DNA of 64,000 nucleotides from Escherichia phage ph0011. The DNA lies in sequence record OP557969.1. One strand, written 5' to 3'. Shown piece by piece: positions 33,825 through 53,792 of the stretch (the stretch's first letter is position 1; every line of letters starts with the position of its first letter). Both the position numbers and the translations under genes were made by a program. The notes beneath the pieces were generated by a model, which saw only the letters and a list, made by a program, of their open reading frames with translations, was not told where the DNA came from and made no database searches.

Positions 33825-34664
33825 ATGACAAGTAGACCAAAGCGTAAAAAGTATCTCAACAATGCAGATTTACTTCGTGAAATACAAAAAAGTAAGATTT
33901 CATACTGCTGGTTATTAGATAAATCATATAGTATGTATGATTATATTGTCTTTCATGAATCTGAAATCACGGCTGAGTTACTTGAAAAAGCTAAAGCAGC
34001 ACGAATTAAAAGACTCAACAATGAAATGCTTGAAAGTATTCGTGCAAAGGAAAACATGAGTGCAAAAAAAGCAAAGGAATATGCAGAAGAGAATAATTTA
34101 GTTATTACTGACGTTCCAATTGATGAAGTTGTTATTCGTGTTATTACTGATGAACACATTCCACCAGATACTAGAGTTAACTTTGAACCATTCAAGCATT
34201 ATATTGTGGATAATGAAGGTATCCTTTATGAAGTTTGTCGTTCTCACTGGAAAGGTGACCTAGAAACAGGTGAATTCTGCACTATTCACGGTAAAATTAC
34301 TAATGAATTGGGTAAAATGTTCATTAAACTTGCAGAGGAAATCTCACACAAATCTAATTATAGAAACTATACTTACTTAGATGAAATGATGGGCGATGCA
34401 AGAATTCAATTAGTTAAAAATGCACTACTCTTTAAAGAGAGTATTCTTTATAAAAAAGATAAACCAGCCGTACAATTAAATCCTTTCTCTTACTATACAT
34501 CGTTTGTTAACAATAGCTTTCGTTCTATTTTGAATAGTGAGAAAAATGTTCGAAATATACGTGATGATTTACTCGAAATGCATGGTTTTACACCATCACA
34601 CACACGTCAAATTGAAATTGAATTGAACATGATTGAAAGGAAAAATGAAGATGGCTCTATTTGA
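33825..34664 (+). CDS. gp55: Late-transcription sigma factor, T4 gp55-like (279 aa)
   Basis: N-terminus KKYLNNADLLREIQKSK matches T4 gp55 KYNYVNNKELLQAIIDWK; second block ELGKMFIKLAEEISHKSNYRNYTYLDEMMGDA matches gp55 region 2-like segment; conserved 55-47-46 gene order. Confidence 0.75.
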   Translation: MTSRPKRKKYLNNADLLREIQKSKISYCWLLDKSYSMYDYIVFHESEITAELLEKAKAARIKRLNNEMLESIRAKENMSAKKAKEYAEENNLVITDVPIDEVVIRVITDEHIPPDTRVNFEPFKHYIVDNEGILYEVCRSHWKGDLETGEFCTIHGKITNELGKMFIKLAEEISHKSNYRNYTYLDEMMGDARIQLVKNALLFKESILYKKDKPAVQLNPFSYYTSFVNNSFRSILNSEKNVRNIRDDLLEMHGFTPSHTRQIEIELNMIERKNEDGSI

Positions 34665-35682
34665 TAAAGCAATTACATTCACTGATATTCACTTGGGATT
34701 AAAGAATAACAGTAAACAACACAATGAAGATTGTTTAAACTTCATTAAATTTATGATAGATGAAGCAAAAAAGAATAATATCAAAGTTTGTGTTTTTATG
34801 GGAGATTATTTTCATAATAGAAGTAATATCAACATTCAAACACTAAACTATGGTTTACAGATTCTTCAACTACTGAATGACAATTTTAAAAAAGTATATT
34901 TTCTTGTTGGGAATCATGATATGTACCATAAGAACAAACGTGATATCACAAGTATCAATATGGCTCAAGTATATGAAAATATCGAGTTCATCAATGAAAT
35001 CACAACATTTGACGATTGTACATTCATTCCATTTATGATTGAAGATGAATATAAACTATTACCTCAACTAAAAAGTAAGTATGTTTTCGGTCACTTAGAA
35101 TTACCAGGGTACTTACTTAATAAGATGGTAGAAATGCCAGACCATGGGAAAGAAACCGATGGTTCTTTTAGTGGTTGTGAATATGTTTTTAGTGGGCATT
35201 TTCATAAAAGGCAAGCAAAAACAACATCTAAAGGAACTCGTGTTGTTTATACTGGTAATTGCTTCCCACATAATTTTTCCGATACGTGGGATGATGCAAG
35301 AGGTGTAATGATTCTCGAACACGATAAAGAACCAATTTTTAAATCGTGGGATAGTGCACCAAAATATCGAACATTCACACTTTCCGAATTATTGACTGAC
35401 CCCAGTTATTATCTTCAAGATAATACAATTTCTAAAGTTCAAATTGATATATCAATAACAACGGATGAGATTAGTTTTATTCGTGATACTTTTACTAAAC
35501 TATACAACATTAGAGAGTTTAATGTTGTAACAAGTAAACAAAATGTATCAGAATTAATTGAAGATGGTGTCAATTTTGAAAGTACTGAATCAGTTGATGA
35601 GATTGTTTTACAACAAATCATGGAAATTGATTCACCAATGTTTGATAAAAATCTTCTAATCCAAATTTACAGATCATTATAA
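34645..35682 (+). CDS. gp47: Recombination/repair nuclease subunit, SbcD/Mre11-like (T4 gp47-like)
   Basis: Calcineurin-like phosphoesterase motifs DIHLG, GDYFHNR, GNHD; ORF-track start 34633 is TTG; ATG 34645 or 34651 (MALFDK) more likely. Confidence 0.85.
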   Translation: MKMALFDKAITFTDIHLGLKNNSKQHNEDCLNFIKFMIDEAKKNNIKVCVFMGDYFHNRSNINIQTLNYGLQILQLLNDNFKKVYFLVGNHDMYHKNKRDITSINMAQVYENIEFINEITTFDDCTFIPFMIEDEYKLLPQLKSKYVFGHLELPGYLLNKMVEMPDHGKETDGSFSGCEYVFSGHFHKRQAKTTSKGTRVVYTGNCFPHNFSDTWDDARGVMILEHDKEPIFKSWDSAPKYRTFTLSELLTDPSYYLQDNTISKVQIDISITTDEISFIRDTFTKLYNIREFNVVTSKQNVSELIEDGVNFESTESVDEIVLQQIMEIDSPMFDKNLLIQIYRSL

Positions 35683-35690
35683 GGGACTAT

Positions 35691-37838
35691 ATGCTAAACA
35701 TTACACGTATATCTATGCGAAACTTCTTTTCATTCGGTAATGCACCACAAATTATTGAATTGAATAGTTCTGACATTTCATTAGTACTGGGTCAAAATAA
35801 TGATGCAGTTATTGAAGGTGGTGACAGTTCTGGACGACGAAATGGTGTAGGAAAAAGTGCAATTATTCAAGGATTAGTTTTTGGATTATTTGGAAAAAGT
35901 ATTGGGAATGATATTAAAATCCCTAACTTAGTTAATAAAACTAATGGGAAAAATTGCGAAGTTGTGGTAGAGTTTGAAAAAGACGGTGTGCAATATATTG
36001 TTGAGCGTGGGAGAAGTCCCACGTATTTCAATCTTGTTACTTTAGGTAAAGATGACAAAATTGAAGATGAATCAAGGGGTGAAAAGAAAGACACTCAAGA
36101 AGATTTGAATGAAATTCTTGGAATATCTCAATTATTATTTGAACATATTGTAGTACTGAATGCAAACGTTGAACCTTTCTTGGCGTTATCCACACAAAAA
36201 CAACGTGATATGATAGAAGAACTTCTAGGTATAACACAGTTAACAGAAAAAGCCGAAATATTAAAGGAGATGTACAAGGATACTAAACGCTTAGCAGAGC
36301 AAGAAAAGTTTAAAAATGAAACAGTTGCTGCAAGTAACGAACGTATTCAAAAAAGTATTGAGGTTCTTCAAGAACAGGCAAACCAATTTGAGATCGATAA
36401 AAGTAATAGAGTAGCGAAGTTAAATGAAGAGTTGAATATTTATAAAACGTTCGACTTCAATGAACTCTATAAAGCTGCTGAAGAGAAAGAGAAAGCTCTT
36501 ATTCATAACACAAAGCGTAATGAAATAGAACGCCGTGTACAAGATTTAGCTTTAAAATTTGATGCATATGACCGTGAGATTGAATCATCCAAACGTGCAC
36601 TAAAACTAAGCATTGATAAACTAAAAACTATTGATATTAGTGCTGAGTTGGAAAATCATAATGAACTAGAGATATGGAAACAGTTAGAAGACATTCTTAA
36701 AGAGAATAATAACCAAAAACGTTTCAAAGAGCAAAAGCTAAACTCACTAAAAGTTGCATTAAAAGGGTATGAATGTTCAATTAATGCTGAAATTGACAAA
36801 TTATCAACCGTTGAAAATAGTAAATGTCCACTTTGTATGTCAGAATTGGAACATAATGAACATACTTCTTCAATTAAAGATAAAATTCAAAGTACTATTG
36901 ACGATCTTCAAGCCAAAATTGACAGTTCTTCTTCTGAAATTGAGATTTTACTTAAAGAAATTGAGAGTATTGAGATTTTTGATATGCCACCTAAGCCTGT
37001 GACATATTATAATACACTTTCAGAAGCACAAATGCATGAACATAAGCTTCAAGAATTGATCAAAAAGAGTGAAGAAGAGCCAATAAACATCTATGCAAAT
37101 GAACTTATGTCATCATATGATGAACTTAACTCATATGAACTAATGGAAGTTCCAGATACATTAAACAAATATGAAGTTAAAGAGTTGGAAATGACCGTAA
37201 ATTCATTATCACAGCAATTAGATCGTGAATTGAAGACTACTAACACATTTATTAGTCAAATTAATACCCTGAAGACTGATTCTTTAGTACCAATCGATTA
37301 TAGTGACTATAATAATCTTGATAAAATGTCAAATCACCAAGATTTCTTGGTTAAATTACTTTTAAACAAGGATTCTTATGTCCGTAAACGTATTATTGAG
37401 CAAAATATCTCATATTTGAATACACGACTTCAGTACTATATCGATATGTGCGGTTCTGAGCATAATGTTGTGTTTTTGAATGATTTGAGTGTTGAAATTG
37501 AGAAGAGTGGGCAGTACTTTGACTATAAACAGCTTAGTCGTGGCGAGCGTACAAGGGTAAACATTGCTTTATCATGTGCTTTCCGTGATACATACGAGTC
37601 ATTATATCAAAGTATCAATCTAATAGCACTAGATGAAGCTTGTGATGTTGGTCTTGATTCAAGTGGTGTAGTTAAAGTGTGGTCAATCTTCAATGACATG
37701 GCTGCTATCAGAAATAAAAATGTATATATCATCTCTCATAGAGAAGAACTAGTTTCTAAGACTGAACATATACTTAAAGTAACTAAAGAAGATGGTTTTA
37801 GTACTATAAGTTACTGTACAATTGATGATATCTATTAA
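35691..37838 (+). CDS. gp46: Recombination/repair ATPase, SbcC/Rad50-like (T4 gp46-like, 715 aa)
   Basis: N-terminal Walker A GRRNGVGKSAII, central coiled coil with zinc hook CPLC, C-terminal signature LSRGERTRVNIAL and Walker B LIALDEACDVGLD. Confidence 0.9.
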   Translation: MLNITRISMRNFFSFGNAPQIIELNSSDISLVLGQNNDAVIEGGDSSGRRNGVGKSAIIQGLVFGLFGKSIGNDIKIPNLVNKTNGKNCEVVVEFEKDGVQYIVERGRSPTYFNLVTLGKDDKIEDESRGEKKDTQEDLNEILGISQLLFEHIVVLNANVEPFLALSTQKQRDMIEELLGITQLTEKAEILKEMYKDTKRLAEQEKFKNETVAASNERIQKSIEVLQEQANQFEIDKSNRVAKLNEELNIYKTFDFNELYKAAEEKEKALIHNTKRNEIERRVQDLALKFDAYDREIESSKRALKLSIDKLKTIDISAELENHNELEIWKQLEDILKENNNQKRFKEQKLNSLKVALKGYECSINAEIDKLSTVENSKCPLCMSELEHNEHTSSIKDKIQSTIDDLQAKIDSSSSEIEILLKEIESIEIFDMPPKPVTYYNTLSEAQMHEHKLQELIKKSEEEPINIYANELMSSYDELNSYELMEVPDTLNKYEVKELEMTVNSLSQQLDRELKTTNTFISQINTLKTDSLVPIDYSDYNNLDKMSNHQDFLVKLLLNKDSYVRKRIIEQNISYLNTRLQYYIDMCGSEHNVVFLNDLSVEIEKSGQYFDYKQLSRGERTRVNIALSCAFRDTYESLYQSINLIALDEACDVGLDSSGVVKVWSIFNDMAAIRNKNVYIISHREELVSKTEHILKVTKEDGFSTISYCTIDDIY

Positions 37839-47571: not shown

Positions 47572-48747
47572 ATGTCACAACTACTAAATGAATCCAAATG
47601 GGTAGCAGTAAAAGAGAAACTAGTTGAAGGTCTACAGGGTACTCGTAAGTCTGTAATGGAAACTGTTCTTGATAACCATCGTAAAGTTATGCTAACTGAA
47701 TCTGCAACTTCTGGTGCAACTACTGCTGGTAACATCGCTACTCTAAACAAAGTGATTCTACCAATTATGCGTCGTGTAATGCCAACTGTTATTGCGAACG
47801 AAATTATCGGTGTTCAACCAATGACTGGTCCAGTTGGTCAGATTCACACCCTACGTGTGCAATATGCTGATAATGCACCTGGTGTTATTGCTGGTGAAGA
47901 AATGCTTTCTCCATACAAAATTGCAAAATCCTACTCTGGTGAACTAAATTCTGATAATAGCAACCCACAAGCTGCTCCTACTAGTCAACTAGAAGGTACT
48001 ATGGGTCGTCGCGTAAATATCCGTATCCTACGTGAAACTGTTGAAGCGAAATCACGTCGTCTATCTGCACGTTGGACTGTTGAATCTGCACAAGATGCAC
48101 AATCTCAACATGGTGTTGATGTTGAAGCTGAACTAATGGCAGCAATTGCACAAGAAGTTACTGTAGAAATCGACCAAGAACTACTAAGCCGTCTACGTGC
48201 ACTACCAGGTGCTGCTGCTGTAACTTATGACCAATCTAAAGTTACCGGTGTTGCAACTTTCGTAGGTGATGAACACGCTGCTCTAGCTACCCTAATCAAC
48301 CGTCAAGCTAACGAAGTTGCTCGTCGTACCAAGCGTGGTGCAGCAAACTGGGCCGTTGTTTCCCCAACTGCTCTAACCATTCTACAGTCTGCAACTACTT
48401 CTAGCTTTGCACGTACCACTGAAGGTACTTTTGAAGCACCAACTAACGTTAAGTTTGTAGGTACTCTAAACAGCACCATGCGTATCTTTGTTGATACCTA
48501 TGCAAGTGATTCTGAAGATATCCTAATTGGTTATAAAGGTAATGCTGAAACTGATGCTGGTGTATTCTATTGCCCATACATCCCACTAATGGCATCCGGT
48601 ACTGTTATGGACCCTAACACTGGTGAATTGGTTACAACTTTCCTAACTCGTTATGGTTACGTACAATTGACCGACAGCACTTCCTCTCTTGGTAACGCTG
48701 CTGACTACTATAGCAAAATCGCTATCAAAAACGTTACTTTCATGTAA
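47572..48747 (+). CDS. gp23: Major capsid protein, T4 gp23 family (391 aa)
   Basis: Blocks IIGVQPMTGPVGQIHTLRVQYA, VEAKSRRLSARWTVESAQDAQSQHGVDVEAEL and GYKGNAETDAGVFYCPYIPL align with T4 gp23; RBS AAGGAGA. Confidence 0.9.
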   Translation: MSQLLNESKWVAVKEKLVEGLQGTRKSVMETVLDNHRKVMLTESATSGATTAGNIATLNKVILPIMRRVMPTVIANEIIGVQPMTGPVGQIHTLRVQYADNAPGVIAGEEMLSPYKIAKSYSGELNSDNSNPQAAPTSQLEGTMGRRVNIRILRETVEAKSRRLSARWTVESAQDAQSQHGVDVEAELMAAIAQEVTVEIDQELLSRLRALPGAAAVTYDQSKVTGVATFVGDEHAALATLINRQANEVARRTKRGAANWAVVSPTALTILQSATTSSFARTTEGTFEAPTNVKFVGTLNSTMRIFVDTYASDSEDILIGYKGNAETDAGVFYCPYIPLMASGTVMDPNTGELVTTFLTRYGYVQLTDSTSSLGNAADYYSKIAIKNVTFM

Positions 48748-48790
48748 TTATAATCGATTTAAAAAAATAATCAAGAAATTAAAAACAAAA

Positions 48791-48818
48791 AGGGACTCTG
48801 ATGAGTCCCTTTTCTTTT
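48791..48818 (+). terminator. Intrinsic terminator after major capsid gene
   Basis: Stem AGGGACT/AGTCCCT, loop CTGATG, T-run TTTTCTTTT. Confidence 0.8.
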
Positions 48819-48889
48819 ATCTAAATATTGACAAACAGTACTGAAACATGTTATGCTTATGTAAATATAGTAACTATAGAGGAATTTAA

Positions 48890-50488
48890 ATGCTTGGTGA
48901 AATCAAACAGTTTTTGAAGACGAAAAAGTTAAGAGGTGTAAAATCTGCACTTCAAGCAAAACCATTATATGTTGATTACTTAAAAGAAATTTATGGTGAT
49001 ATCGAACTGAATGTTATCATTTACATGGTATTGAATGATATTAAAGAAATTCCAAAAGCAAAATGTGGTAACGATGTAAAGTTTGTTAATTTAATTGAGG
49101 GATTCAGTGACAGATGTAATCTACCGTTTCAGGGAAAAAATAAATGTAAAGTTTGTTCTGTAATGATTTCTGAAAAAAGAAAAAGTACATACAAGAATAA
49201 AACTGGGTATGATAATCCCGGACAGAATCCAGACGTTCGTGACAAGATGTCAAGAACTAATATTAATCGTTACGGAACTACTGTTCCCCAGCAGACCGAT
49301 GTTGTCAAAAAACGTTCAATTGAGACAAATCTTCTTAAGTACGGAGTTGAACATCCCTCAATGTTGGAAGAAAACAAAGAGAAACGCCAAAAAACTGTTT
49401 TTGAAAAGTATGGTGTAGATAATGTACTTAAAACTACACATAAACGCCTTGAAGAACGTTATATGAATTTCAAGAAAAAATATGAATATTCTGGAAAATA
49501 TACATTACTTAGTTCAATTGAAGAGTATGATTCTTCTGTTAATGGTGTTAAAAGTATTCTTTTATGGAAATGTAATACTTGCAACAATACTTTCAATAAA
49601 GTTGCACCGTGTTTAAGATGTCCTAAATGTGAACCATACTCTTCCAGTACTGAAGAAGTTGAATTATATGAATATATTTCATCAATCTATGACGGTGTAA
49701 TTATCCAGAATAGTAGGAATATTATCACAGGTAATGAGATTGATATTTTCATTCCAGAACTGAAACTTGGTATTGAGTTCAATGGTGAGTACTGGCACAG
49801 AGACGAAGTGCGTGGTAATAATTATCATCAGAGCAAATATATTCGTATGAAGGAAAATGGCAACAAACTTATTACTATATATAGTAATGAATGGCGTAAT
49901 AAAACTGACATCGTTAAGCGTAGATTAAAAAGCATTTTAAATACTGATAATAGAGTGTACGCTCGTAAGTGTACTATCGGTTTAGTTCAGAATGATGTAT
50001 GTGATGAGTTTTTGAATACATATCATATACAGGGTAAGTGTAGTTCTTCGATTCGCGTAGGTCTGTATTTGGAAACAGAACTTGTTGCAGTAATGACATT
50101 CGGTAAACCAAGATTTAACAAAGAATATGAATATGAACTACTCCGTTATTGTTCCAAAGATACAGTGGTTGGTGGTGCTTCAAAACTGTTAAAATATTTC
50201 GAAATTACACATGTTCCAAAATCTTTGATATCTTATGCTGATATGAATTGGAGTTCTGGTAATCTATATGAAGCAATTGGATTTCAATTTGTTGAAATGA
50301 CGAAACCTGGATATTTCTATTATGATAAAAAAACAGAAACCACATATTCCAGATACCAATGTCAAAAGCAAAAACTAATATCAAAGTTTGGATTTCCTAA
50401 CACAATGACAGAGAATGAAATGACACGATCACTTGGTTATTACAAAATATATGATTGTGGTAATTTAGTATATAAAAAAGAATACTAA
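48890..50488 (+). CDS. Multi-domain freestanding nuclease, homing-endonuclease-like (532 aa)
   Basis: N-terminal CxxC pair, three ~21-aa repeats ending in [RK]YG, zinc ribbon CNTCN...CLRCPKC, Vsr/DUF559-like PD-(D/E)xK core IDIFIPELKLGIEFNGEYWH, C-terminal domain with GGASKLL motif; inserted between capsid gene and fiber module. Confidence 0.6.
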   Translation: MLGEIKQFLKTKKLRGVKSALQAKPLYVDYLKEIYGDIELNVIIYMVLNDIKEIPKAKCGNDVKFVNLIEGFSDRCNLPFQGKNKCKVCSVMISEKRKSTYKNKTGYDNPGQNPDVRDKMSRTNINRYGTTVPQQTDVVKKRSIETNLLKYGVEHPSMLEENKEKRQKTVFEKYGVDNVLKTTHKRLEERYMNFKKKYEYSGKYTLLSSIEEYDSSVNGVKSILLWKCNTCNNTFNKVAPCLRCPKCEPYSSSTEEVELYEYISSIYDGVIIQNSRNIITGNEIDIFIPELKLGIEFNGEYWHRDEVRGNNYHQSKYIRMKENGNKLITIYSNEWRNKTDIVKRRLKSILNTDNRVYARKCTIGLVQNDVCDEFLNTYHIQGKCSSSIRVGLYLETELVAVMTFGKPRFNKEYEYELLRYCSKDTVVGGASKLLKYFEITHVPKSLISYADMNWSSGNLYEAIGFQFVEMTKPGYFYYDKKTETTYSRYQCQKQKLISKFGFPNTMTENEMTRSLGYYKIYDCGNLVYKKEY

Positions 50489-50516
50489 AATACATTATTG
50501 AAACAAGGAGGTTTCG

Positions 50517-50867
50517 GTGTTAACTGTATATATTTTTAAGAAAGAAGAGTACTTAAAGAGTCAGTACTCTAAAATTGAGATTAACGTTCCCTATGGAACA
50601 TTGGTTGGTTATGACGAATCTAGCGAAACCTTGTTTTATAATGATGATAAACTTGACTATAGCATTGATTCATTTATTGAAGATATACTTGATAGTAATA
50701 CAGAAGATATGTTGTATGAAGAATACTTAGATGCGTACAGAGAACGTATGTCAAAGTTACATGCTGATGCTCCAGTACTAAACATTACGCAAAAACCTTC
50801 TGAATTTGAACCACATAATCCGTTTCAACGTTTAATTGATATTGGTTTAAAATTCACTATTAATTGA
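50517..50867 (+). CDS. Hypothetical acidic protein (116 aa), GTG start
   Basis: GTG at 50517 preceded by RBS AAGGAGG with 5-nt spacing. Confidence 0.45.
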   Translation: MLTVYIFKKEEYLKSQYSKIEINVPYGTLVGYDESSETLFYNDDKLDYSIDSFIEDILDSNTEDMLYEEYLDAYRERMSKLHADAPVLNITQKPSEFEPHNPFQRLIDIGLKFTIN

Positions 50868-50906
50868 TAGATAAATATCTCCATATTAATGATGGAGATT
50901 GAATCT

Positions 50907-51215
50907 ATGTCACAAATATGTTATGTTATCATAAATTCTGCGTGGCCTGATTATGTTAAGATTGGGTTCACATCAAAATCCGAAATGACTGAGCGTTTGA
51001 GAACATATCAGACAGCTACACCTTTCAGAGATTTTGAGGTATACCATGAGGTGTATTTTGATGATGCACGTTTGGCTGAAAAAGAAATTCATAAAAGACT
51101 AAAGCAAATGAATGCAATTAGACAACCGAACACTGAGTGGTTTAAAATGTCTAAAAAGATCGCCGCAAACATTATTGACTCCATAAGGGATGATATGGAT
51201 AATGATATGTTATAG
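50907..51215 (+). CDS. T5orf172 / GIY-YIG-like domain protein (~102 aa)
   Basis: CYVIINSAWPDYVKIGFTSKSEMTERLRTYQTATPFRDFEVYHEVYFDD...EKEIHKRL...TEWFKMS fits the T5orf172 pattern; ATG 50907 has RBS GGAGA; ORF-track ATG 50889 is an alternative. Confidence 0.65.
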   Translation: MSQICYVIINSAWPDYVKIGFTSKSEMTERLRTYQTATPFRDFEVYHEVYFDDARLAEKEIHKRLKQMNAIRQPNTEWFKMSKKIAANIIDSIRDDMDNDML

Positions 51216-51255: not shown

Positions 51256-52869
51256 ATGAGCATAAGTTTTAATAACCCACTGGATACAATGACCAGTACT
51301 GGTGCTAATGGTTCTTTGGAACTAATAGTGCTTGGTGGTACACCAACTAACCCAAGACCTATTCGTTTTAATTCATCATCAGTTATTATGCCAGTAAAAA
51401 CATTACCGACTGGTGAACAAGGTGCAATGGTTTTTGATAGAAACGAATTAGTGTTAAAGTATCATAATGGTACTAGTTGGATTGCAATATACGACAATGA
51501 TACTATTTTAGAACCAATTAGGGTTTCGTTGGATGAAGTAAACAGAAAATTAAACTTAAAGGTTGAAAGTGTAACATACAGTAGTAGTTCTGTTCCAAGT
51601 GCAAGTATCAGTGGAACAAACTTAAACATCGTATTCCCTACTGTTTCTAGTGGTGGTGGTTCAGGGCCAACTGGCCTTTATACTTCACTTAAACCTGGTG
51701 TTATCACACAGTACGCATTGACTTCTGGTCAAAACGTTGCTAGTATACGTGAACAAATGTCTGGACAAACCAATGGTCAAAATGGACGAAATGGTTCGCA
51801 AGCTGCTCCATGGAAAACATCAGATGGATGGTGCTTTGCTGATGGTATGTGGTGGCAATGGGAAGGTGAAAATGGCACAGTTACTAAACAAGTACCAAAT
51901 CTTAACAGAAACGCGTATTTAAAAGGGATATCCACATCAGGGGTAACCAAAACGGATAGTGTTATTGGGAGCAGTGGTAACATTAGCGGAACTGTTTTGA
52001 GTGTAGCACAATTGCCTTCACATTCATTTAGTTTTAGCGGAAGAACTGATGCTGCTGGTCGCCACAGCCATAGTCAAGCACTAAAAGGTATGGACCGAAG
52101 TGGTCTAAATGCGTTAACATCAAGTAATGATAACGGTATACCAACAGTAATTAGTAACATTAATGAAGCACCAGACCATGTTCACTCATTTAGTGGAAAC
52201 ACAAACACACTTGGTGGGAATCAGCCACATTATCATGGTATCAGTAATGTTGATGTTGAGCACTTTAACGTGGCATATTTATATAACATTGCAGAATCAA
52301 ACGTAGCACTGAGTGAAAAAGTAGCAAATACGCGTTATGTACTGAAATCAGGTGATACAATGACTGGTTCTTTAACTATTGCCAACAGTGCATCTATTAA
52401 GTCTAATGATACATCATTAGTTCTATATTTCCGTAACGCAAGCGGCGGTGAACGTGCGGCTGTTTACCATAATTCATCAAACAACACGTTGCGATTACGT
52501 TCCGGTGGTGCTGAAGTAGCAGTAAACTCTTCAGGTAACTTGTCTGCTCCTTCATTAACTGTTTCTAATAATTCAGCTACTGTTGGTGGTAAAAATATTG
52601 TTCGCACTATCAATGGTACAGCGGCTGATGGTAATGGTAATGTTTCATTGCAAATTAATTCGAATAACGTACAAAGTATTCGTTTGAGTGCAAGAATTGA
52701 AACAAGTAAAATTCCAGATTCTTCATGGACATACGCACCTGAAGGTGCACTCATGGATGGTGTATGGATTTCAGTGAACGGTAGTTCAGGAACTCATTTG
52801 GAACGTATTAGCTATCGTTATATTCAAATGCAGGTAAATGGCAATTGGGAAACGGTACGACAACAATAA
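51256..52869 (+). CDS. Tail fiber protein (537 aa), partner of downstream Tfa chaperone
   Basis: RBS AAAGGGA; G/S/T/N-rich; immediately followed by tail-fiber-assembly gene. Confidence 0.55.
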   Translation: MSISFNNPLDTMTSTGANGSLELIVLGGTPTNPRPIRFNSSSVIMPVKTLPTGEQGAMVFDRNELVLKYHNGTSWIAIYDNDTILEPIRVSLDEVNRKLNLKVESVTYSSSSVPSASISGTNLNIVFPTVSSGGGSGPTGLYTSLKPGVITQYALTSGQNVASIREQMSGQTNGQNGRNGSQAAPWKTSDGWCFADGMWWQWEGENGTVTKQVPNLNRNAYLKGISTSGVTKTDSVIGSSGNISGTVLSVAQLPSHSFSFSGRTDAAGRHSHSQALKGMDRSGLNALTSSNDNGIPTVISNINEAPDHVHSFSGNTNTLGGNQPHYHGISNVDVEHFNVAYLYNIAESNVALSEKVANTRYVLKSGDTMTGSLTIANSASIKSNDTSLVLYFRNASGGERAAVYHNSSNNTLRLRSGGAEVAVNSSGNLSAPSLTVSNNSATVGGKNIVRTINGTAADGNGNVSLQINSNNVQSIRLSARIETSKIPDSSWTYAPEGALMDGVWISVNGSSGTHLERISYRYIQMQVNGNWETVRQQ

Positions 52870-52881
52870 GGAAATGTGCAA

Positions 52882-53391
52882 ATGCAACTAACTAATTTTA
52901 AGATGTACGATAAAGAAGATGGAAATCCAAATTCTTTGTATATGATGTCCGATGAAGGCATGGATTGGTATGAATCTCGTGGTCTGTTTGACATTAACAA
53001 AGCCAAATTTATGTATGATGCCAATGGATTGATAGTTTCTGCATCATATGACATTTATGATCTAGTACCTTTGGGGTTTAGTGTTTCTGAAATTGAGTAC
53101 GATGGTGACGTTAACAAACTTTATGGTATGATTTATGATGGTAAAACTATCAAGGAGTATGTAGAAACCAAAGAAGAAAAGATTGAACGTCTTAAGATTG
53201 AATTGGAAAAATTAAAATACTCTGCAATTCAACAGCTTGGGCATTTGAAAACAGCTATGGATCTTGAGTTAGCATCAGATGAAGAAGCTGTATTGTTTGC
53301 AAAATTAAAAGAGTATGTAACACAATTGTCGTCAATTAAACCAGTAGATATGGTCAAAAAAACATTTTCATTTCCAGTCAAACCTGAATAA
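52882..53391 (+). CDS. tfa: Tail fiber assembly chaperone, Tfa family (169 aa)
   Basis: SDEGMDWYESRG...AKFMYDANGLIVSASYDIYDLVPLGFSVSEIEYD and C-terminal LELASDEEAVLFAKLKEY resemble lambda/E. coli Tfa; ORF-track start is GTG 52876; ATG 52882 has RBS AAGGAAA. Confidence 0.7.
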   Translation: MQLTNFKMYDKEDGNPNSLYMMSDEGMDWYESRGLFDINKAKFMYDANGLIVSASYDIYDLVPLGFSVSEIEYDGDVNKLYGMIYDGKTIKEYVETKEEKIERLKIELEKLKYSAIQQLGHLKTAMDLELASDEEAVLFAKLKEYVTQLSSIKPVDMVKKTFSFPVKPE

Positions 53392-53432
53392 AAATTGAGA
53401 CAGCACTGAAATGTATGATACAATTTAGTCAT

Positions 53433-53464
53433 CTCACCAGCGGTGGTGAGGTGACATTTTTTTT
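53433..53464 (+). terminator. Hairpin plus T8 run after Tfa gene
   Basis: Stem CTCACC/GGTGAG with loop AGCGGT, then GTGACA and TTTTTTTT; the ORF-track start 53415 lies inside it and is rejected. Confidence 0.5.
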
Positions 53465-53489
53465 CAAAACAAACATGGAGAAATACAAA

Positions 53490-53792
53490 ATGGCTAAATC
53501 CAAAAAAGAAGTTAAAGTTGAAATTCGTGATCTAAACGATGAACAGCGTAAACGTCTCGGTGATGCACTTAACAACATCGTAGTCCAACTAACTTTTATC
53601 GATGATACTAAAGCATCTTTATCTGATTTTGTTTCTAGTGTTTCAGACGAACTTGGTATTGATGCATCCGATATCAAACAAGCGGCACAACGTATGTACA
53701 AAGGTGATTACTTTGACAAACAAAGTAAACTAGATAATATTGAAACTATTCTAAGTGTTACCAACAATCTTCCACAAGCAGACGATTACTAA
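53490..53792 (+). CDS. Hypothetical protein (100 aa)
   Basis: ATG 53490 (MAKSKKEVKVEIRDL) with RBS GGAG 9 nt upstream. Confidence 0.45.
   Translation: MAKSKKEVKVEIRDLNDEQRKRLGDALNNIVVQLTFIDDTKASLSDFVSSVSDELGIDASDIKQAAQRMYKGDYFDKQSKLDNIETILSVTNNLPQADDY

Follow-up and report, generated by a model that had tools for sequence, protein, structure and literature searches.

In a 64,000-nucleotide window of Escherichia phage ph0011 (the whole stretch of DNA analysed; sequence record OP557969.1), three open reading frames (ORFs) lie between the gene for a gp23-type major capsid protein and a tail-fibre module. We consider it likely that the first of them, encoding a protein of 532 amino acids (aa), is a free-standing homing endonuclease gene (HEG) of the Hef family and lies on a self-contained cassette in the spacer downstream of the capsid gene. 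Its C-terminal domain resembles Mom, the DNA-modifying enzyme of phage Mu. The remaining two, an acidic 116-aa ORF and a small T5orf172 gene, are conserved residents outside the cassette. The window itself belongs to an Asteriusvirus-like jumbo phage of the 121Q/PBECO4/Rak2 group, to which it is 84-89% identical at the nucleotide level by megablast.

The 532-aa protein matches the PHROGs family phrog_3339, annotated as homing endonuclease, from end to end (E = 5e-136), and aligns with Hef of the T-even phage U5 at 31% identity over residues 37-529 (BLASTP, E = 7e-46; tblastn coverage 93%). When 50,697 phage records were searched with it by tblastn, 969 places in 415 records were found, including the "Hef-like homing endonuclease" genes of RaK2, K64-1 and Muenster, five places in PA5oct, and hef of U5. 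These comparisons add the gene to the known Hef family as a new member. To our knowledge, U5 Hef is the only member of this family that has been tested experimentally, and Sandegren et al. reportedly saw it cut Hef-bearing DNA in vitro as well. According to PMC2988022, Hef is a site-specific homing endonuclease with the nrdB region as its target; cleavage close to the endonuclease's own locus and over-transmission in mixed infection are reported for U5 Hef only (cited in PMC2988022). Taylor et al. (PMC3239194) count Hef-type proteins among the Vsr-like "EDxHD" enzymes, of which I-Bth0305I is the type member. U5 Hef (GenBank AY262133; Sandegren, Nord and Sjoberg 2005) is homologous to the 532-aa protein over nearly its full length and shares its N-terminal zinc (Zn) and repeat region, Vsr-like nuclease and Mom-like C-terminal domain, and its gene is likewise free-standing, intergenic and next to an essential gene. 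The two differ in their site (nrdA/nrdB for U5 Hef, capsid/fibre here), and in the pairwise alignment U5 Hef has no clear equivalents of the second Zn ribbon and reads SYGNRRW where the 532-aa protein reads SYADMNW.

Elsewhere, Hef-family genes are found between nrdA and nrdB in U5, between two topoisomerase II subunit genes in RaK2, between gp13-like and sheath genes, and in LIMEstone1 next to baseplate and tail-tube genes (PMC3296691). The RaK2 gene (L014, NC_019526.1, 3474-5183) sits exactly between the gp39-like and gp52-like subunit genes. Intergenic sites beside essential genes are the usual habitat of free-standing homing endonuclease genes. At the nucleotide level, window positions 50139-50606 are ~67% identical to the Hef-family copies of Klebsiella (RaK2-like) phages; this match starts in the Mom-like domain (at about residue 417) and, as reported, continues past the stop codon into the next ORF. 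Copies from Pseudomonas (PA5oct-like) phages give a shorter match wholly within the Mom-like domain, and no nucleotide-level match covers the nuclease region.

Alignment with relatives shows that the cassette occupies a discrete slot. Homology to PBECO4 and fEgEco12, in which the slot is empty, ends just past the T-run of the capsid-gene terminator and returns at the ribosome-binding site (RBS) of the 116-aa ORF, and these two phages carry only about 35-45 bp of spacer in between. The terminator is kept in relatives with and without an insert. Directly after it, promoter-like sites precede the occupants of ph0011 (TTGACA-18-TATGCT), UE-S1 (TTGACA-17-TATCAT) and 121Q (TTTACA...TATAAT), all of them consensus matches only, and no promoter-like site was seen in the empty PBECO4 spacer. 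An earlier note on this DNA, made from its letters alone, had proposed a free-standing homing endonuclease for the 532-aa gene, and this reading is supported by a full-length Hef homolog encoded on a cassette of promoter, RBS and ORF within an intergenic spacer. The note had also suggested looking for presence or absence at the same locus in related genomes, where we find the slot empty, filled by something else, or holding a diverged Hef.

The other occupants are of a different kind. In 121Q, vB_Ec-M-J and Turkey3 the slot holds an unrelated 365-aa protein and in slurp01 a 307-aa protein; each combines a DUF4379 Zn finger with a T5orf172 match below threshold, to which the 365-aa protein adds matches to DUF723 and CapR. 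With Zn fingers plus a T5orf172-like region, 121Q gp604 and the slurp01 protein resemble the T5orf172 homing endonucleases of the ICP1 type, whose architecture Barth et al. described (PMC10448857). The possibility that 121Q gp604 is a diverged Hef was rejected, as it has no significant similarity and a different architecture. A DUF4379 gene in two sizes (365 and ~305 aa) is seen in the slot in many relatives. UE-S1 is the only close relative with a Hef-type gene there, 63-66% identical in protein and 69% in DNA. Among 21 distinct isolates with both flanks aligned, roughly 1 slot was Hef-type, 15 were Zn-finger-type and 5 were empty, a split judged from megablast locus lengths with direct inspection of only three of these classes. 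At least two unrelated kinds of inserted gene use the spacer behind the capsid gene, which makes it a hot slot. We also note that the annotated 552-aa coding sequence of UE-S1 (L001, ON568341.1, 1840-3498) begins upstream of TTGACA-17-TATCAT and reads through it; its start is probably the GTG at L001:1903, which has GGAG upstream and gives a 531-aa protein that fits the N-termini of P0002 and the window protein.

Every motif that the earlier note listed for the 532-aa protein was found, and the ORFs lie where it had placed them. Its Zn ribbon and [RK]YG repeats stand, but there are two ribbons rather than one, and four repeats of 23 aa rather than three of ~21. Across 121 family members, the N-terminus varies from 13 to 231 aa and the repeat units from 0 to 13, whereas the nuclease (91-104 aa) and GNAT (178-197 aa) modules are constant in length, which points to a fixed two-domain catalytic core mounted on a modular and presumably DNA-binding array; we infer that the DUF7487 repeats form this array. 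In Zn ribbon 1 one ligand has been relocated. Cysteine is usual at residue 57, and the members with Ala or Ser there have gained a Cys at residue 89 (18 sequences), so the four-Cys Zn site is preserved.

The nuclease domain has a Vsr-like PD-(D/E)xK fold, with E283, D285, E296, H303, H313 and K316 conserved in 118-121 of 121 homologs. Its match to PDB 3r3p, the structure of I-Bth0305I, was marginal in a single-sequence search (E = 0.014) and rose to E = 1.5e-7 in a family-profile search. On the EDxHD site of I-Bth0305I, D196 corresponds to D285 (119/121), N208 to N298 (Asn in 64, Asp in 52) and H213 to H303 (121/121). As the EDxHD prototype (PMC3239194), I-Bth0305I differs from the 532-aa protein in being intron-encoded rather than free-standing, in carrying N-terminal NUMOD/HTH DNA-binding motifs and in lacking a GNAT domain; the Hef family has His313 where I-Bth0305I has D222.

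The C-terminal domain, which the earlier note had left as one of unknown function, is a Mom-like GNAT domain by structure and profile comparison. Its best structural match is Mom of phage Mu (8bv8), and a helical insertion at residues 493-515 is like the Mom-specific one. R359, H379, R419, G428 and Y460 are invariant (121/121). In the AlphaFold 2 (AF2) model the GGASKLL motif forms the start of a helix at 429-441, and it probably represents the GNAT cofactor loop, with G428 present in all 121 sequences. The PHROG Mom-like model matched the 532-aa protein with E = 1.5e-8, and the Pfam Mom model (PF25680) stayed below its gathering threshold (14.5 bits against a cutoff of 27.1, E = 0.028) and reached E <= 0.01 in 29 of 54 family members (best 7.7e-8). 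PDB searches with the single sequence and with the family profile both missed 8bv8, and hhalign against Mu Mom alone gave 5% probability; Mom was recovered by structure comparison and profile-profile comparison only. We took the functional residues of Mu Mom from PMC13219725, in which R111, S124, D149 and R151 are essential. H58, R111, D149 and Y159 correspond to H379 (121/121), R419 (121/121), D451 (Asp in 98, Asn in 21) and Y460 (121/121), and Y59 to Leu or Ile in the Hef-type domain. Mu Mom (PDB 8bv8; PMC13219725, PMC7261163) is a stand-alone 241-aa protein made late under Com/Dam control, whereas here the domain is fused behind a nuclease.

An exhaustive search with the Mom-like domain alone returned 16,659 cluster representatives, 12,913 of them at E <= 1e-10, and the best 150 are nearly all proteins of 400-1000 aa with the Mom-like domain at the C-terminus. 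Some representatives of 830-1040 aa (P0241, P0243, P0244) matched the domain in two separate stretches, which suggests two Mom-like domains or a single split one.

Several observations weigh against the reading of this gene as a homing endonuclease gene with a Mom-like domain. D222 of I-Bth0305I aligns with H313, a His in 119 of 121 Hef-family members, so that the predicted active site is not identical to the characterised EDxHD one. The essential R151 of Mu Mom falls at position 453, which is Arg in 67 of 121 sequences and Asn in the subclade of the 532-aa protein, and the equivalent of S124 is ambiguous, lying beside an alignment gap with S422 and S431 as candidates. The promoter is a consensus match only, and the regional total of such matches is no higher than in shuffled sequence. 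The matrix of HEG identities has the same topology as that of the capsid proteins, and the synonymous divergence (dS) of the HEG, 1.6, lies within the noisy range of its neighbours (0.29-1.75). We considered whether "MN" in place of "RR" at 452-453 is a recent inactivating mutation and rejected this; the "DMN" motif (12/121) is a stable feature of the subclade, kept as "YADMNWS" down to 39% identity.

The congruent matrices and unexceptional dS mean that long vertical residence with occasional loss explains the link between this Hef and the capsid slot as well as repeated homing does. The gene could have entered the slot in a Rak2-like ancestor, lost its mobility and been inherited vertically, often lost or replaced and kept for some benefit such as excluding co-infecting relatives. 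Copies only 46-66% identical share the slot among phages with 74-100% identity in their capsid proteins, the dS is compatible with co-divergence, and purifying selection extends across deep divergence, all as such a history would predict. However, the empty sites of close relatives are clean short spacers without remnants, an unrelated HEG-like gene alternates in the slot, which shows ongoing turnover, and the window and UE-S1, with 100% identical capsid proteins, have wholly different spacer flanking the cassette and HEGs that are 63-66% identical. We regard a long-resident, immobile gene as quite unlikely. Synonymous divergence was also tried as an arbiter on whether the window and UE-S1 cassettes descend vertically or were acquired independently, and was not decisive, because the neighbouring values of 0.29-1.75 are near saturation.

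More distant homologs (P0004-P0007, 46-52% identical) lie directly behind the capsid gene in Rak2-like phages that are themselves more distant and in which the downstream genes differ, which fits a Hef lineage specific to this site, and metagenomic contigs carry 98%-identical copies in the same context. For the whole gene the ratio of nonsynonymous to synonymous divergence (dN/dS) is 0.18; by part it is 0.10 (nuclease), 0.14 (Mom-like domain) and 0.30 (repeats). The 532-aa gene is not decaying, and its nuclease and Mom-like domains are under purifying selection.

The earlier note did not recognise the domain combination as a characterised one, but U5 Hef has the same architecture, its Vsr-like EDxHD assignment has been published (PMC3239194), and so have fusions of a restriction endonuclease (REase) to Mom (PMC7824862). 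Mom is a tRNA-dependent DNA aminoacyl-transferase (PMC13219725), and Iyer et al. 2021 (PMC7824862) described REase-Mom fusions in jumbo phages and proposed that momylation shields the DNA of the phage and that the nuclease is directed at other DNA. Their fusions and the Hef-type proteins are one and the same: the five "momylating enzymes" that they list for PA5oct are the five Hef-family places that we find in that phage. What is read there as restriction plus protective modification is described in GenBank, PHROGs and the Hef literature as homing endonucleases, and in the literature searched we found no paper that joins the two views.

Following Iyer et al. 2021, the 532-aa protein might be a one-chain weapon akin to a restriction-modification system, its Mom-like domain marking adenines in the phage's own DNA and its nuclease degrading unmodified DNA of the host or of competitor phages, and be kept for its benefit to the phage. 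The Mom-like character of the GNAT domain in both sequence and structure would fit, as would the retention of most functional positions of Mu Mom (H379, R419, D451, Y460), the purifying selection on this domain and the constancy of the nuclease-GNAT core. Yet almost all close relatives do without the gene, and the many diverged copies in intergenic positions beside essential genes (LIMEstone table, PMC3296691) follow the pattern of homing genes. In addition, the only member put to the test, Hef, is described in PMC2988022 as a site-specific homing endonuclease, and this subclade lacks the R151 equivalent. It would seem unlikely that such a weapon is what maintains the gene, and in any case this reading and homing are not mutually exclusive.

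For the homing element itself, we tentatively raise the idea that the Mom-like domain of Hef-type endonucleases is catalytically active and acylates adenines at or around its own recognition site, possibly using aminoacyl-tRNA like Mu Mom. The idea is appealing but we hold it rather doubtful; the absent R151 equivalent in this subclade counts against modification-based self-immunity here. Were Hef indeed to cut Hef-bearing DNA, as Sandegren et al. reportedly saw in vitro, a means of protection inside the cell would become relevant. We know of no modification activity for any Hef-type protein. The domain is part of the invariant nuclease-GNAT core and is under purifying selection, so it must have some function.

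Taking the 532-aa protein as a homing endonuclease, we envisage the following sequence of events. When a cassette-bearing phage shares a cell with a relative that has no insert or another one in the slot, the Zn ribbons and the array of 23-aa helical repeats would attach to DNA close to the slot, and the cassette-less genome would be cut by the Vsr-like nuclease domain. Recombinational repair from the cassette-bearing genome would then copy the cassette, together with flanking capsid and fibre markers, into the cut one. The most likely roles of the Mom-like domain would be to acylate or otherwise engage DNA adenines and so shield the element's own genome, or to aid target binding.

The small T5orf172 gene fares differently from its neighbour. 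The earlier note had called its product nuclease-like, which is right in that the T5orf172 domain scores above the Pfam threshold and belongs to the GIY-YIG nuclease superfamily, but had also taken it for a selfish insertion, which our comparison does not support. All 33 detectable orthologs are bare domains of 100-108 aa with no DNA-binding module. A single, syntenic copy of the gene with 65-94% identity is found in each of Asteriusvirus, Munch, CBB and XaC1, and the gene is present in the same position in UE-S1, 121Q, PBECO4, fEgEco12, slurp01, Turkey3, vB_Ec-M-J, Munch and CBB; it is absent from the locus only in the deeper relatives L015, L016 and L017. No presence/absence polymorphism was seen among the close relatives compared, and its dN/dS of 0.02 equals that of the capsid gene. 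The bare domain, the synteny across genera and the low dN/dS show that this is not a polymorphic homing gene. It lies outside the Hef element as a resident gene of Rak2-like jumbo phages, encodes a stand-alone, strongly conserved GIY-YIG-like nuclease domain and possibly acts as a structure-specific or recombination nuclease.

Of seven aligned orthologs, five start at the Met codon at 50907, with GGAG 8 nt upstream of it, and the protein is probably 102 aa long (50907..51215, + strand). R30 and E77 are invariant in the alignment of 33 orthologs and are taken, without direct alignment to Odn, as the catalytic Arg and Glu described for that T5orf172 nuclease of ICP1 (PMC8263062). That the protein is nonetheless a free-standing homing endonuclease landed between core genes could be argued from its nuclease superfamily and these two residues, from the frequency of T5orf172 HEGs near capsid genes (PMC10448857) and from its absence in the three deeper relatives. 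We consider this highly improbable, since Zn-finger DNA-binding domains are attached to 87% of T5orf172 HEGs (PMC10448857) and to none of the 33 orthologs, and since the gene has the fixed position and capsid-like constraint given above. The 102-aa protein shares the domain and the conserved Arg and Glu with the T5orf172 HEGs and Odn of ICP1 (PMC10448857, PMC8263062), but differs from the ICP1- and T5-type enzymes in having no DNA-binding domain and in being fixed rather than polymorphic. Compared with UE-S1 and PBECO4, its dN is very low (0.03) and its dS, at 1.6-1.75, is the highest of the locus (0.65-0.93 for the fibre gene and the 116-aa ORF); with only 102 codons to count from, this could be noise, or it may reflect a different gene history. 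The protein also matches the PADLOC candidate defence models PDC-S57 (E = 4.7e-17) and PD-Lambda-1 (E = 1.5e-5), because the same nuclease domain is used in bacterial anti-phage systems.

Between the two genes, the 116-aa ORF is part of the resident locus and not of the cassette. It is conserved next to the slot in every relative examined; Munch and CBB have 25-32% identical counterparts, and the ORF persists even in phages without the T5orf172 gene. An NCBIfam search of the three proteins gave nothing useful. Paralogs of the three were sought in the window by tblastn, which gave only weak matches at 34834-35058 and 36111-36314; these are chance similarities, as the ORFs there are Mre11/Rad50-like. 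This adjacent pair at 34633-37838, an Mre11-like gene (Metallophos, 349 aa) and a Rad50/SbcC-like gene (715 aa, with a Zn hook), makes up a recombination nuclease of gp47/gp46 type and is unrelated to the Hef and T5orf172 findings. Further downstream, the 125-aa ORF listed at 53415-53792 starts inside a strong terminator (53428-53455) and has a PHROG match only from residue 28; its real start is probably the Met at ~53490, and the weak PHROG match suggests a transcriptional regulator. Coordinates are collected in Table 1.

Table 1. Features of the capsid-fibre locus in the ph0011 window, followed by slot genes of three relatives
Feature	Position	Strand	Basis or remark
gp23-type major capsid gene	47572-48747		upstream flank of the three-ORF locus
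Intrinsic terminator of the major capsid gene	48788..48813	+	hairpin AAAAGGGACTCTGATGAGTCCCTTTT and T-run; left edge of slot
Inserted cassette, ~1.7 kb, boundaries approximate	48820..50505	+	alignments to empty-site phages PBECO4 and fEgEco12
Sigma-70-like promoter (consensus match only)	48828..48857	+	TTGACA, 18 nt, TG-n-TATGCT; 10/12 matches
532-aa ORF, Hef-family homing endonuclease gene (likely)	48890-50488	+	RBS AGAGGAA at 48878-48884; phrog_3339; U5 Hef homology
N-terminal four-helix region	residues 1-50 of the 532-aa protein		precedes Zn ribbon 1
Zn ribbon 1	49052..49159	+	residues ~55-90; ligands C59, C76, C86, C89
Four 23-aa helical repeats ending [KR]YG (DUF7487)	49166..49441	+	residues 93-184
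Zn ribbon 2	49556..49639	+	C228, C231, C244, C247; just before the nuclease domain
Vsr-like/EDxHD-type PD-(D/E)xK nuclease domain	49646..49939	+	residues 253-350
Mom-like GNAT domain	49940..50485	+	residues 351-532
116-aa acidic ORF	50517-50867	+	phrog_15724; GTG start, RBS AAGGAGG
T5orf172 ORF, longest form 108 aa	50889-51215	+	Pfam T5orf172
Tail-fibre gene and its assembly protein	51256-53391		downstream flank; then B-family DNA polymerase
DUF4379 slot gene, 121Q gp604	L002 1895-2992		
DUF4379 slot gene, slurp01	L006 1582-2505		
DUF4379 slot gene, Munch	L009 6354-7268		

These results call for a corrected annotation, with the large gene as a Hef-like (EDxHD/Vsr-type) homing endonuclease bearing a Mom-like GNAT domain and the small T5orf172 gene as a conserved resident. 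They also show that one very large protein family is being described in two incompatible ways, as a "Hef-like homing endonuclease" and as a "momylase fused to a restriction nuclease". What remains of most interest is the function of the invariant Mom-like domain and the slot as a natural test system. With Mom known as a tRNA-dependent DNA aminoacyl-transferase (PMC13219725), the role of this domain in a homing endonuclease can be tested directly, and culturable E. coli phages offer a convenient setting, with one slot that comes in three natural alleles (empty, with Hef, with a Zn-finger protein). If the domain does acylate adenines around its own site, the genome carrying the element would be immune to self-cleavage while unmodified co-infecting genomes would be cut, making Hef genes mobile, single-polypeptide "modify-self, cut-other" units, and with 16,659 representatives they would be a very widespread source of unrecognised DNA hypermodification.

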